Origin: Eledone cirrhosa
Lineage: Eukaryota
Length of the DNA: 64,000 bases
NCBI GenBank assembly: GCA_964016885.1
Contig: OZ024743.1
Span: forward strand, 201,190,001-201,254,000
Direction of reading: 5' to 3'
The position numbers and the translations under genes are program-made. The notes under the pieces were generated by a model that worked only from the letters and a program-made list of their open reading frames with translations, had not been told where the DNA came from and did not search any database. Within the stretch, counting starts at the first letter, position 1. Every line of letters starts with the position of its first letter. Shown piece after piece: positions 1 to 47,165 of this stretch.

Positions 1-248
1 ATTTATAACTGATTTAAAGCACCCAACAAGTTACTGGAGTAAATATTCCATGATATTAAATAAATGGAAACTATATTTATAAAACCATATTTATTATATA
101 TATTTCATGGGTACGTCTTTATTTATACAACAAACTTTGTATTTTATCTGATGAAAGCGCACCAAGGTTTGCTTGGTTGCCCTTGAAATATATATAATAA
201 AATAAATATGGTTTTATAAATATAGTTTCCATTTATTTAATATCATGG
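1..248. mobile_element. Penelope-like pLTR fragment with inverted duplication (arms ~49-107 and ~184-248)
   Basis: The arms are reverse complements. Bases 1-107 match the terminus of the GIY-YIG-encoding PLE at ~40363-40474. (TA)n flank on the right. Confidence 0.8.
140..204 (+). ncRNA. Minimal type I hammerhead ribozyme motif
   Basis: tattttat-CTGATGA(148-154)-stem II aagcgcaccaag/cttggttgccctt-GAAA(185-188)-tatata-TA-ataaaata; stem I tattttat/ataaaata. Confidence 0.75.
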
Positions 249-264
249 TGTATATATATATATA

Positions 265-2209
265 TCATCATCATCATTTAACGTCCATTTTCCAGGCTAG
301 CATGGGTCTGGACAGGAATTGTCCCACTTGAGGCAAGATTTGGTTGTCTTGCTCAGGACTGTCTGGCGGGTTTTCTACGGCTGGATGCCCTTCCTAACAC
401 CAACCACGTTTACAGTGTGGACTGGGAGGTTTTTTACCATGTTACCTACACGGCCACATTACAGCGTGGATTGTATGTTTTTTTCTCATGACACCTACAC
501 GACCTCATTTATTTAGGACTGGATGTTGTGGTACCAACATAGCTTTACATCGAAAGGGGTGGTGTAGATGGCGGTGGGGGGTAGGGTTGGGACGGGGGTG
601 TATTTTGGTTAAGAGGTGCTTACTGACTGTAGGTTTCGCTTTGTACATAGGCAAGGCGGGTCTTCTGTATTACTAGGTAGCGCCAAAGATCTCGGTCCAG
701 TGACATTGTCTTGGAGAGGTGTAAGTGTGTGAGGTCGGATTTTATCAAGTCGACCCAGGTTTTTCTGGGTCTGCCTACTCCATAGCTACCATCTATTTTG
801 ATCGCCCAGCACTTTTTTATACAGCTGTCATCTTTCATGCGCATCACGTGACCGTACCAACGTAGTCTTCTCTCGAGTAAACAACATCTGATCCCTCTTA
901 TTCCTAATTTCTCCCTTAGTTCGTTTATGCTTTGCCGTTCACGTATATTACTATTACACATCCAATGGAGCATGCAAGCTTCGTTCCTCTCCACTCTGCA
1001 TATGTCCTCTGCACACAGTGCCCATGTCTCACTGCCATGTAACATCTATGTTCGTATGCAAGCATCATACAGCCTGCCTTTTATTTTTAGAGAGAAACCT
1101 TTAGCGGCCAATAGTGGTATAAGCTCTCTGAACTTTTTCCATCCCGTTCGGACTCTAGCTACTGTACTTTCAGAGCACCCTCCACCACTGCTGATTTTGT
1201 CACCCAGGTAACGGAAGGTGTCCAGTATTTCTATAGAACCATCTGGGCAATGGAATGAGCTAGTATTCTGTGGGCATTTGCTGCTACTTATTGCACCAGA
1301 GCACCGGCCACATATAAAATCTATATTCTTAGTTATCTTACCTGTGATCCCACTACATCTTTTATGCACCTATACTTTGCATTTGGGACATAAAATGGAG
1401 TTTCTGCCTACTCCTTTCCTACACACTGAGTATGGCCATTTCCCAGATGGGACCAGTGCCCTATTCTCCTTCCTACAGATTAGGGCTTTAGTCTTAGACA
1501 AGTTAACTTTAAGGCCTTTTGATTCTAGGCCATGTTTCCATGTTTGGAATTTCTTCTCTAGTTCAGCCATCGATTCAGCTATGAGCATTAGGTAATCTGC
1601 GTATAGAAGTTCCCATGGGCAGCTGGTCTTGAACTCCTCCGTTATAGCTTGGAGGGTGATAATAAATAGGAGGGGGCTAAGGACGAGCCCTGATGAACAC
1701 CAACTTTTACGCTAAACTCTTCACTATATTTGTTGTTAATTCTAACCTTGCTGACTGTTTCTTTGTACATGGCTTGTATAGCTCTCACAAGCCATTCATC
1801 TATACCTAATTTTCTAAGAGCGCACCAGATAATGGAGCGGGGGACTCTGTCAAAGGCTTTCTCCAAGTCTACAAAAGCTAAGTAGAGGGGTTTACTTTTA
1901 GCTAGGTACTTCTCCTGTAGTTGTCGTACAATGAAAAGAGTGTCTGTGGTACTTTTACCTGACAGAAACCCAAACTACATTTCATCTAGATTAATTCGCT
2001 CTCTGATTAGTTGCGCTATAACTTTTTCTGTGACCTTCATGACCTGGTCAATTAATTTAATGCCTCTATAGTTACCCCTATCTAGGGCATCTCCTTTACC
2101 CTTGTAGCAGTTAATGATGATGCTGCTACACCAGTCCTTTGGTACGACCCCATTCTGTATAACTTGGTTTACTATCCGGTTGACCATAGTGTGTCCCACC
2201 GTTCCAGAT
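265..2209 (-). mobile_element. RTE-clade LINE, 5'-truncated and degenerate (RT, PHD-like finger, C-terminus, 3' UTR, (GAT)n tail)
   Basis: ORF fragments KGKGDALDRGNYRGIKL, EKAFDRVPR, GVHQGS, FRYLGD, RRLRWYGHVMRM are broken by stops and a frameshift; collinear with 33260-36168. Confidence 0.93.
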
Positions 2210-2212
2210 ATA

Positions 2213-2292
2213 TATAGGAAAATGTTTAACCCTGACGGCAGAGCTAAGCCGTTTCGACGGCTTTTTCAGTACAGGAATAGCCGTTGAAATAT
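2213..2292. mobile_element. Partial copy of the hairpin mini-element family at 22992-23188
   Basis: taggaaaatgtttaaccc...gccgtttcgacggct...gaatagccgttgaaa closely matches 23074-23149. Confidence 0.7.
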
Positions 2293-2809
2293 TGAGAGTG
2301 GAGAGAAGAGACTCAGTGTGAGAGGAGGAGAGAGAGCGTATGGTGATAGTGACAGGAGAGGCTTAGTATATGAGGGGAGGAGAGAGGATATGTTGAATGA
2401 GAGAGAGAGAGAGGAGAGGTGAAGGTGAGAGGAGGAGGGACATAATATATTGAGAGAGAGAGAGAGAGAGAGAGAGAGAGAGAGGAGAGAGAGGAAAGGC
2501 TCAGTGTGAGAGGGATTGGGAGGGAGTATGTTCAGAGAGAGTGGGGGTGGGGGGGCTCAGGCTTTCTATATTTGTATATGAGAAAGAATGTTGAGGAGCT
2601 CAGTATGTTTCAAGAGAGAGGGAGAACGAGAGAGAGAGAGAGAGTATGTTAAGGAAGAAAAAGGGTGAGGTCAATGTATGTGTGTTTGAGAATGAGGTGG
2701 AAATATAGAAATATAGAGTGAGTAAGCAAGAGGGAGAGTGCAAGTGTGAGAGATAGATTGAAAGTGTGTGAATGGGAAAGGTAGAGGCAGTGATGTTAAG
2801 ACAGATAAG

Positions 2810-3303
2810 TAGAGTCCAGTCCACTCCAGTCTAGTCCAGTCCAGGCCAGTCCACTCTAGTCTGGTCCACTCCAGTCCACTCCAGTCCAGTTCAGTCCGGT
2901 CCACTCCAGTCCAGTCCGGTCCACTCTAGACCACTCCAGTCCACTCCAGTCCACTCCAGTCAACTCCAGTCCAGTTCAGACCGGTCCACTCCAGTCCACT
3001 CCAGTCCACTCAAGTCGAGTCCACTCCTGTCCATTCCACTCCAGTCTGGTCCACTCTAGTCTGGTCCACTCCAGTCCACTCCAGACCACTCCAGTCCAGT
3101 CCAGTCCAGTTCAGTCCACTCCTGTCCATTCCGGTCCAGTCCACTCCAGTCCAGTCCACTCCAGACTACTCCAGTCCAGTCCAGCCCAGTCCAGTCCAGT
3201 TCAGTCCACTCCTGTCCAGTCCAGTCCACTCCAGTCCGGTCCCCTCCAGACCACTCCACTCCTGTCCAGTCCAGTCTGGTCCAGTCCAGTCTGGTCCAGT
3301 CCA
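2810..3303. repeat. Pentanucleotide tandem array (CCAGT/CCACT)n
   Basis: Direct 5-bp periodicity. Confidence 0.95.
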
Positions 3304-3399
3304 AGATCTGGTTTGTGAAATGATGGAAGAACTGCACTAGTTGGTTAGAGAAACCTTGACAGACTAAGTGAGGAACAACTGAAATAGGAAACAATACCT

Positions 3400-45428: not shown

Positions 45429-45520
45429 TATATATATATAAATATATATATATATATATATATATATATATATATATATATATATATATATATATATATA
45501 TATATATATATATATAAATT

Positions 45521-45702
45521 ATAAATAGTCAGGACTTAATGGCTGAGCTCTTGCCATTTCTACAGCTAGTCTGGGACTAGTTGTTGAAATGACAAGAGCT
45601 CAGCCATCGGATCCTGACTATTTATGATATAACCATACTCTACTACCCTAAGTTTATAGTACTCTGTTGAGTAATAAACAGTCACAAACTGAATCCATCC
45701 TC
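45521..45702. mobile_element. Hairpin mini-element (arms 45521-45571 / 45575-45625 plus tail), relative of 22992-23188 in opposite orientation
   Basis: Palindrome; tail motif actctactaccctaa is the reverse complement of 23053-23067. Confidence 0.7.
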
Positions 45703-45789
45703 ATATATACATACATACATATATATATATATACACATATATAAATACATACATATATATATATTAGGCAAACTACCAGGCAGGGCAAA

Positions 45790-45975
45790 CTATGTATGCA
45801 GTAGATGTACAAGGAAATTTGACAGTAGGAGTCGCAGTGATAGACAGATTTTTCAAAAGCAGTTTGGTTCTATAGAAGTGGTTGATAGCTTCCGGTACCT
45901 AGGTGATTAGATTAGCATGGCAGGGGGATGTTCCAAGGCCATAGTATCTAGAATAAGGACGGTTTGTTCCAAAAA
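45790..45975 (+). pseudogene. Old RTE internal fragment
   Basis: Translates SIEVVDSFRYLGD*IS. Confidence 0.65.
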
Positions 45976-46294
45976 GATGACCAGTACGAGCTGAAGGTCC
46001 GCTAAGGTGAAACAATTGTTCTCGGTATGGTGAACTAACTGCTGTGTTACCACTTCTATATACATATATATATATACACACCCACACACGCACACACACA
46101 CATATATATATATATATATTTATATAAATAGATAGATTTCTCTATGTATATTGGGAGGAGGCCCTAGTTTAAAAAGGTACTCAATACATTAGTAGAGTAT
46201 GGCATATTTATTTTATTATTTATTTTATTACAAATGAAACAGTTCTAGTTAAGCAAAAGTAATTTCTATAAATGACAAGATAAATATAAATAGT

Positions 46295-46626
46295 TGTGTA
46301 GGTGTCACAACAAAAAGCATCCTGCCCACACTGTAAAGTGATCATGTAGGTGTCACAACAGAAAGCACTCAACCCACACTGTAAAGTGATCGTGTAGGTG
46401 TCACGACACAAAAGGCATACAGCCCACACTATAAAGTTATTGTGTAGGTGTCATCACGAAAACACCCAATACTCACTGTAAATGTGGTTGGCATTAAGAA
46501 GGGCATCCAGCTGTAGAAACCAAGCCTAAATCAGTTCTGTATGAGCAAGACATGGTCATCTGACCTGACCTATCTCACAATAAGACAACATGTCTAATCC
46601 ATGCTAGTGTGGAAAAATGGACATAA
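46295..46626 (+). mobile_element. RTE/SINE 3' UTR with ~4 tandem ~48-bp subrepeats
   Basis: gtaggtgtcac...cccacactgtaaagtgatc repeats, followed by ggttggcattaagaagggcatccagctgtagaaa. Confidence 0.75.
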
Positions 46627-46944
46627 CAGCTCATGTGTTATCCTTAAATCAAACAGACACATTCAATGTTTTCCAGAGACTGGATTCCATCAAATTAACG
46701 TAGGATGTGATGCCGTGGTGTTCATCTGGATAATGGATTAAGTCAACCACCCAGGCTACAGCAGTCAATTCTAATGTCTACCTAGTAAACTTCACTCAAA
46801 AATAGTTGACATGAACTGAAGTTATAAAAGGAACCATATCTGAAAGGTTGTATTAAGTGGTATCAAAACTGGGCCCACATGAGGGCTAAGCTTGCTTTGA
46901 TGATATATATATAGATAGATATATGTGTGATATATGTATATATT

Positions 46945-47165
46945 TGTAAGTCCTGGGTTCAATCGTGGGTAACCACAGTAAGTAAGGTACTCAATACATT
47001 AGTAGCGTGTATACAACAACATTTAATATAGAAACAGCTTCTACAGGACTAGAGATGTTTCATTCAAAGGAAATCATCAAGGCTTTTCCTGATGATTTCC
47101 TTTCAATGAAACTGTTCTAGTCCTGTAGAAGCAATATGTCTGTATTAATATTAAATTTTGTTATA
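46945..47165. mobile_element. Fold-back insertion (core arms 47037-47079 / 47090-47132) with truncated hammerhead-like cores
   Basis: CTGATGA at 47089-47095 and GAAA at 47108-47111; the mirror copy has TTGATGA; TA-rich flanks. Confidence 0.55.

Follow-up and report, generated by a model that had tools for sequence, protein, structure and literature searches.

The 64,000-nucleotide stretch of the Eledone cirrhosa genome analysed here (contig OZ024743.1, positions 201,190,001 to 201,254,000; referred to as the window) contains a series of fold-back units embedded in TA repeats. It is probable that these units are insertions of several endonuclease-bearing families of Penelope-like elements (PLEs), each likely built from two separate complementary DNAs (cDNAs) that copy the end region of the element and meet head to head in the TA repeat. 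A first-pass annotation of the window had described about nine insertions from unrelated sequence families sharing one plan. Inverted arms, an extension on one side and TA or TA-rich flanks were indeed present at all nine places, and the fold-backs are real. The list of units needed correction, since 29840-30460 consists of two abutting insertions (E1 and E2), and so did the claim of unrelated families: the units at 1-248 and 40325-44769 belong to a single family (A), and families D and G are related (71% identity over 87 nt). An inverted copy, a tail at one end, TA targeting and hammerhead ribozymes have already been published for PLEs. Because this plan is known, the supposed insertion system is a known layout produced by several ordinary PLE families, and the interest of the units lies in what their ends tell of the mechanism.

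The relationship to PLEs is supported by protein-coding sequence. The frame at 41957-42895 (minus strand) encodes the 5'-truncated C-terminal ~300 amino acids of the family A protein, comprising the end of the reverse transcriptase (RT), a CxCx5C linker and a GIY-YIG-like endonuclease, and had 127 scored relatives at 93-100% in the 3.0-Gb genome. Full copies of family A encode 748-779 amino acids, and the nearest named homologue, from Argonauta, showed only 39% identity. Pfam missed the protein, with no RT match, and a profile search of PDB returned a weak RT match. A model of a 742-residue protein (predicted local distance difference test score, pLDDT, 90) had telomerase TERT as its best fold match (E = 2e-9), so that family A, as modelled, is one open reading frame (ORF) with a telomerase-related RT. 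There is moderate support for a predicted GIY-YIG endonuclease at its C-terminus, as the family A profile aligned over a two-strand core with an ORF region having a weak Pfam GIY-YIG match (E = 8.8e-5, probability 60). RW and SDKT motifs were found in A, B, D and F, with K as the third residue in F only. CxCx5C, CxxC and CxH were all present in A and F; the available fragments showed CxxC in B, and CxxC and CxH in D. No CCHH motif was seen when the family A protein was read by eye. These motif patterns match the Hydra clade as defined by Craig et al. (2021; PMC8557442), a placement made by motifs rather than by a tree. The families are new members of the PLEs, mostly of Hydra type, and a Hydra family from this host may already have been published.

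Copies at other loci linked the short units to such ORFs. Family B continued past its tail into a PLE ORF at all 20 loci fetched, D had ORF matches beyond the tail at L275, L279, L284 and L286, F was linked to a Hydra-type ORF at L218, and E2 ran into an ORF of the DKG type at one locus (L489). The PLE origin proposed in the first-pass annotation is supported for A, B, D, F and E2, which read past the tail into a PLE ORF elsewhere in the genome; the check it suggested, for an ORF link in each family, was positive for five of nine, as C derives from an ORF-less head-to-tail unit of ~565 bp and no link was found for E1, G or H at the loci examined. The annotation had also regarded some of the short units as perhaps non-autonomous and mobilised by elements like the one at 40325-44769. 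To judge from their sequences, the short B, D and F units are instead by-products of their own autonomous families, and C alone looks clearly non-autonomous. Exact anchor matches numbered 15,310 for B, 2,158 for D and 3,912 for F genome-wide. As in other endonuclease-bearing PLEs, pseudo-long terminal repeats (pLTRs) in partial tandem or inverted arrangement with a one-ended tail were seen.

Short, palindromic, high-copy units within TA repeats could also be miniature inverted-repeat transposable elements (MITEs) of a TA-targeting DNA transposon. We consider this extremely improbable: a one-sided tail, a variable centre, insertions devoid of an inverted repeat, hammerheads and target duplications of 9-13 bp speak against it, as does direct continuity with RT-endonuclease ORFs, the partners being RTs rather than transposases. 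For A, B, D, F and E2 the MITE explanation is refuted by that continuity; for C, E1, G and H the shared hairpin described below and the shared plan argue against it.

Hammerhead motifs were analysed over positions 1-47200. Nine complete type I folds were present, compared to a mean of 0.025 and a maximum of 1 in 200 dinucleotide shuffles, and the predicted enrichment over shuffled sequence was therefore found. The bare core was not enriched (27 versus 22.4 +/- 4.9 in shuffles). The 'about a dozen' hammerhead-like cores noted earlier correspond to 13 cores with GAAA downstream, but complete folds lie in only four of the nine listed units (1-248, 5610-6025, 36194-36419 and 40325-44769). Among genomic copies, the complete hammerhead was found in 25 of 25 for B, 15 of 20 for F and 9 of 20 for E1, and in none of 20 copies each of C, D, G and H scanned across the stub region, so that the ribozyme is not a shared part of every unit. 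An Rfam scan gave no hammerhead hit at E<=1, and matches below the gathering threshold were driven by microsatellites or by hairpins only. Families A, B, F and E1 carry a predicted type I hammerhead in the pLTR. Additional hammerheads or cores from other PLE-like ends, beyond those first listed, lie at 36560-36700 (-), 44800-45000 (-) and 24878 (+). In the family F donor at L218 (4058-8029), two related hammerhead cassettes with unlike downstream sequence are separated by ~1 kb of microsatellite-rich DNA.

Comparison of the A and F donors revealed a small hairpin, RCTC...GAGY, usually followed by RCY, a few bases past both ends of the element. The motif has a background of ~0.001 per 9-nt window. 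It lies 4-13 nt beyond the tail-less end in all 8 families that were tested, and 5-9 nt beyond the tailed end in all 5 that have a continuation; its first pair alternates between A-U and G-C, with no mismatch. The second hairpin of B and D was predicted from the A and F donors before it was searched for. The B tail ran into it at 282 places, with none for a reversed-pattern control, and the D tail at 23 distinct places among 40 matches. A hairpin pair is disrupted in one of two F donor copies, the C copies of the hairpin are without the last triplet, and the C tandem unit holds both hairpins. No hairpin was seen by eye in E2, which belongs to another clade. As a hairpin follows the tail-less end and again the tailed end, the tail amounts to the stretch that separates twin hairpins, both of which precede the ORF, in what would be the 5' leader.

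Since similarity-ranked searches favour copies that resemble the query, uniformity of length and junction was re-tested on samples of B, D and F taken in genome order. Among 100 unselected B arms, 54 were tail-less, 39 were tailed, 3 ran into the ORF and 4 were of other kinds; for 51 unselected D arms the corresponding numbers were 28, 20, 2 and 1. Exactly one tail was carried by 25 of 28 short head-to-head B insertions from 88 unselected loci, with one further insertion unclear. In family A, the inverted pair could be resolved at ten long loci; each of them had a single outer tail, located on the long copy in five and on the inverted piece in the other five. One tail per insertion and two fixed 3' ends per family were therefore observed. 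TA was present on both flanks of 33 of 33 B insertions, in agreement with the flanks described earlier, and an informative target duplication, mostly of 9-13 bp, was detected in 8 of these 33, compared to 1.7 in shuffled pairs. Both arms of an insertion carried the same allele in 12 cases against 2 with a single arm for B (p = 6e-8), and in 7 against none for D. A nearest-neighbour test of arm versus arm was weak, with ties predominating.

Shared alleles are also expected if a single cDNA snaps back on a small palindrome and self-primes the inverted arm, as was proposed for Adineta PLEs (PMC3846280). In most B junctions the sequence is perfectly palindromic about a natural 6-bp palindrome, and the joins of F, D and H likewise lie at small palindromes. 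Snap-back requires, however, that one arm be contained within the other, and at five of the ten A loci it is the shorter, inverted piece that bears the tail. Moreover, tail-only pieces are joined to a tail-less arm with no overlap at three B loci (L357, L366 and L403) and in the E1 type, an arrangement that neither terminal inverted repeats nor snap-back can produce, and the pile-up of B ends described below persists where the arm is joined to unrelated positions in its partner. Snap-back is contradicted for the non-overlapping joins and is quite unlikely as a general explanation; it could have made a share of the perfect palindromes.

The inner ends of the arms provided information on where copying stopped. 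Of 100 B arms, 24 stopped at one base, 175 nt before the tail, and no inner position accounted for more than two. In asymmetric junctions the base preceding this B end was G in 149 cases, versus 113 for A, C and T together, at a position that is C in the donor and A or T in the partner arm. The right arm of the B unit in the window begins at this recurrent 5' end (~5860) and is preceded by a G that is absent from the donor. Untemplated G at the fixed 5' ends of L1 and SVA has been ascribed to copying of the cap (PMC3287187), and the Drosophila Penelope transcript starts inside the pLTR, upstream of a 34-bp repeat (PMC2377424). From the fixed B end with its untemplated G and these two parallels we infer run-off at a capped 5' end, the extra G being likely a copy of the RNA cap. 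We read upstream peaks at 39, 93, 110 and 214-218 nt as alignment breaks in low-complexity 3' untranslated sequence rather than as ends. No pile-up was detected at the ribozyme cut site of B, where 38 of ~15,310 arms start as against 15 at a control site. RNA cut by the ribozyme was thus rejected as the template for B, and the template does not seem to be set by cleavage at the ribozyme.

The recurrent end could alternatively reflect a hot spot of stalling or trimming at the palindrome rather than the start of a capped RNA, with two cDNAs still being made. The B position does lie within a palindrome, slippage can account for many of the G junctions, and F has several palindromic join points with no single peak. 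We nevertheless hold this to be very unlikely, since the B end is sharp to a single base, G occurs after many different fillers (35 of 100 listed junctions) and on both arms of one junction (L355), and the Drosophila transcript start is similarly placed inside the pLTR (PMC2377424).

A different explanation is that the short fold-backs propagate themselves as non-autonomous mini-elements, the whole hairpin being transcribed and reinserted by a PLE protein. Many B copies of the same length exist (40 were scored at 96-100% over 411 nt), the B junction pattern has 2,029 strand matches, D has a side-specific allele, the tandem unit of C contains both hairpins but no ORF, and G, H and E1 are without an ORF link. 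Those 2,029 matches are, for their part, mostly perfect palindromes, each of which is counted twice. Junctions varied from copy to copy, with 17 types among 38 B insertions, 12 among 20 of D and 19 among 19 of H, and the B tail could lie on either side of the junction (26 versus 4); a B fold-back copied whole from one master was rejected on this variety and on the side of the tail. In addition, a stub that has no second hairpin should not be able to serve as the template for another tailed end, and the arms of B, D and F are leader sequences from elements that carry an ORF. Self-propagation is accordingly unlikely.

We therefore favour joining of two cDNAs, for which the following mechanism is proposed. 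The RT-endonuclease, probably as a dimer, would make staggered cuts on both strands of a TA tract, and each cut end would prime reverse transcription 4-13 nt upstream of one of the two small RNA hairpins, such that one cDNA would have a tail and the other none. The two cDNA ends would then join through microhomology or a few filler bases. With both hairpins in the 5' leader, copying would quickly meet the capped 5' end of the RNA and run off, giving stubs of fixed, MITE-like length in B and probably in D, while F-type stubs may be early truncations joined at small palindromes. Cleavage of both strands, a predicted dimer and two internal start sites have been described for another PLE in vitro (PMC11167929).

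Several observations weigh against this reading. About two thirds of the listed G junctions could equally come from slippage at a short repeat that lies immediately within the arm; counted by eye, 35 of the first 100 listed could not. The 5' ends of D cluster more loosely, with 35 of 51 arms inside a 15-nt span, and 29 F arms have no single 5' peak. One of the 28 short B insertions has two tails and another has none, so that the tail is one-sided as a rule rather than without exception. An allele of D is restricted to the tail-less arm (9 versus 0, p = 0.004), which two copies made from one RNA would not give. Long seamless tailed copies exist although the 3' end of their donors has no hairpins, and are left unaccounted for. 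Finally, searches past the tail gave no second hairpin for G, with 2 matches, or for H, whose 17 matches all seem to be microsatellite flank, and none was found in the one E1 locus examined.

More speculatively, the twin hairpin may be the RNA landing signal of the Hydra-type PLE enzyme, one hairpin for each subunit, and copying from hairpin to cap a normal first 'strong-stop' step, as in retroviruses. Jumps of this short cDNA to a different position on RNA would then regenerate pLTRs and tandems, and failed jumps would leave the head-to-head stubs in their thousands. We regard this extension as a tentative one that is possible but doubtful. At three D loci (L272, L276 and L284) leader copies are fused directly to ORF-start fragments, which would be such jumps caught in the genome if the strong-stop reading is true. 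In either case, the fold-back ends probably record a poorly understood step in PLE copying. These abundant young families offer testable predictions concerning the RNA motif, the transcript start, the cause of the single tail and the ribozyme cut, which should not be the template end. In practical terms, this 3-Gb genome holds thousands of repeats that look like MITEs and for which annotation as stubs of PLEs is appropriate.

The individual units in the window are arranged as follows. A short family A fold-back occupies 1..248, with a tail that begins ~44 nt before the window, arms at 48-95/201-248 and a complete hammerhead at 148 (+). The long family A insertion (40325..44769) has its tail at 40325-40404, arms at 40405-42298/42882-44775, hammerheads at 40511 (-) and 44669 (+), and a hairpin motif at 40405 (-). 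The family B fold-back (5612..6022) comprises a tail (5612-5705), arms at 5706-5855/5874-6021 (inverted match 5706-5831/5896-6021), hammerheads at 5798 (-) and 5929 (+), a hairpin motif at 5692 (-) and an 11-bp target duplication. Family F is represented at 36193..36419, with arms at 36193-36251/36295-36353, a tail at 36354-36418, a hammerhead at 36278 (-) and a hairpin motif at 36359 (+). In E1 (~29840..30150, minus strand) a tail-less arm lies head to head with an inverted tail-only fragment, with no inverted repeat; the hammerhead core of this copy is mutated, and is intact in 9 of 20 genomic copies. E2 (~30180..30460) has a degenerate tail of ~40 nt and arms at 30220-30300/30377-30457, is a piece of a DKG-type PLE end, and showed no twin hairpin.

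The remaining units have no complete hammerhead. Family C (8897..9222; tail 8897-9020, arms 9021-9075/9168-9222) comes from the ORF-less tandem unit. Family D (22993..23188; tail 22993-23072, arms 23073-23127/23134-23188) is a piece of a Hydra-type PLE end, and shares its TA tract with an adjoining tail-less family A end at 22857..22961 (+), which itself has a complete hammerhead at 22871. The older, D-related family G lies at 45521..45702 (arms 45521-45571/45575-45625, tail 45626-45702), and family H at 46946..47165, with the tail on the left, arms at 47037-47079/47090-47132 and a core at 47089 whose stems do not fit; for neither was an ORF link found. A solo tail-less D arm is present at 2214-2270 and an H tail fragment at 46174-46198. 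Differing PLE stubs are stacked in one TA tract at L082, L118, L272 and L281, as at 22857-23188 in the window, with later inserts reusing the TA flanks of older ones. Among D copies at L096-L115, all seven insertions of one sub-lineage have a base change in the tail-less arm alone, of which our best model gives no account.

Other repeats in the window include long interspersed element (LINE) copies with endonuclease and RT at 11693-20055 (+), 25250-29436 (-) and 37752-39222 (-), which we take to be L1/Tx1-like. One has an open frame of 1265 amino acids and another an upstream frame of 609 amino acids, and these copies form the longest inverted repeats of the window. A presumably RTE-like LINE lies at 33621-36194 (-), with an 857-amino-acid frame, and also at 620-2200; related short interspersed element (SINE)-like repeats recur after (CAT)n runs across the window. 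Positions 47600-64000 are taken up by 16 kb of simple and minisatellite repeats whose strand skew is extreme.

Of the known systems, the Hydra clade (PMC8557442) shares the RW/DKT motifs, the CxCx5C linker, CxxC and CxH around the endonuclease, a pLTR hammerhead, (TA)n targets and a short single ORF. The families described here differ in their tails (65-130 nt, versus the 30-40 bp stated for PLEs in PMC8557442), in D, G, H and C stubs with no complete hammerhead, and in very high copy number (15,310 exact matches to the B anchor). Twin hairpins are not mentioned in the part of PMC8557442 that was covered. More broadly, we found no description of twin hairpins or of 5' run-off in PLEs in the literature searched, most subscription papers lying outside its coverage. 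The Poseidon element PAc, studied in vitro (Frangieh et al., 2024; PMC11167929), resembles our families in that two internal RT start sites bound the tail, both strands are cut in AT-rich DNA, an RNA signal is needed downstream of the start, and hammerhead cleavage is dispensable. It belongs to a different clade, its RNA signal is just bracketed (to the first 172 nt of the ORF), and the part of that report covered describes neither a duplicated motif nor 5' run-off.

Family C is like the animal non-LTR retrozymes and the non-autonomous Chlamys elements in forming ORF-less head-to-tail tandems with PLE-type ends (bioRxiv 10.64898/2026.07.22.740005; PMC8557442), but is not a retrozyme because its tandem units have no hammerhead. 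Unlike retrozymes (bioRxiv 10.64898/2026.07.22.740005), the stubs of B, D and F do not form tandem arrays. A non-LTR retrozyme identity was rejected, as the hammerhead-bearing families are ORF-linked or not tandem at the loci seen, while C is tandem but hammerhead-less. Full-length L1 and SVA insertions similarly show an additional G directly ahead of a fixed 5' end (PMC3287187); here, unlike there, the G marks leader copies of 100-270 nt within a head-to-head junction and not full-length elements. The closest resemblance in layout is to published PLE insertions. For PLEs, a 5'-truncated copy in inverted orientation, a tail that may sit at either end, insertion into (TA)n and pLTR hammerheads have been described (PMC8557442), as have target duplications of 8-10 bp and junction palindromes in Adineta Penelope (PMC3846280), and our units are like these insertions in their head-to-head layout, either-end tail, target duplications and junction palindromes. 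In these studies the tail is attributed to resolution by the endonuclease, and the inversion to self-priming, whereas our non-overlapping joins and the rule of one tail per insertion speak for two cDNAs.

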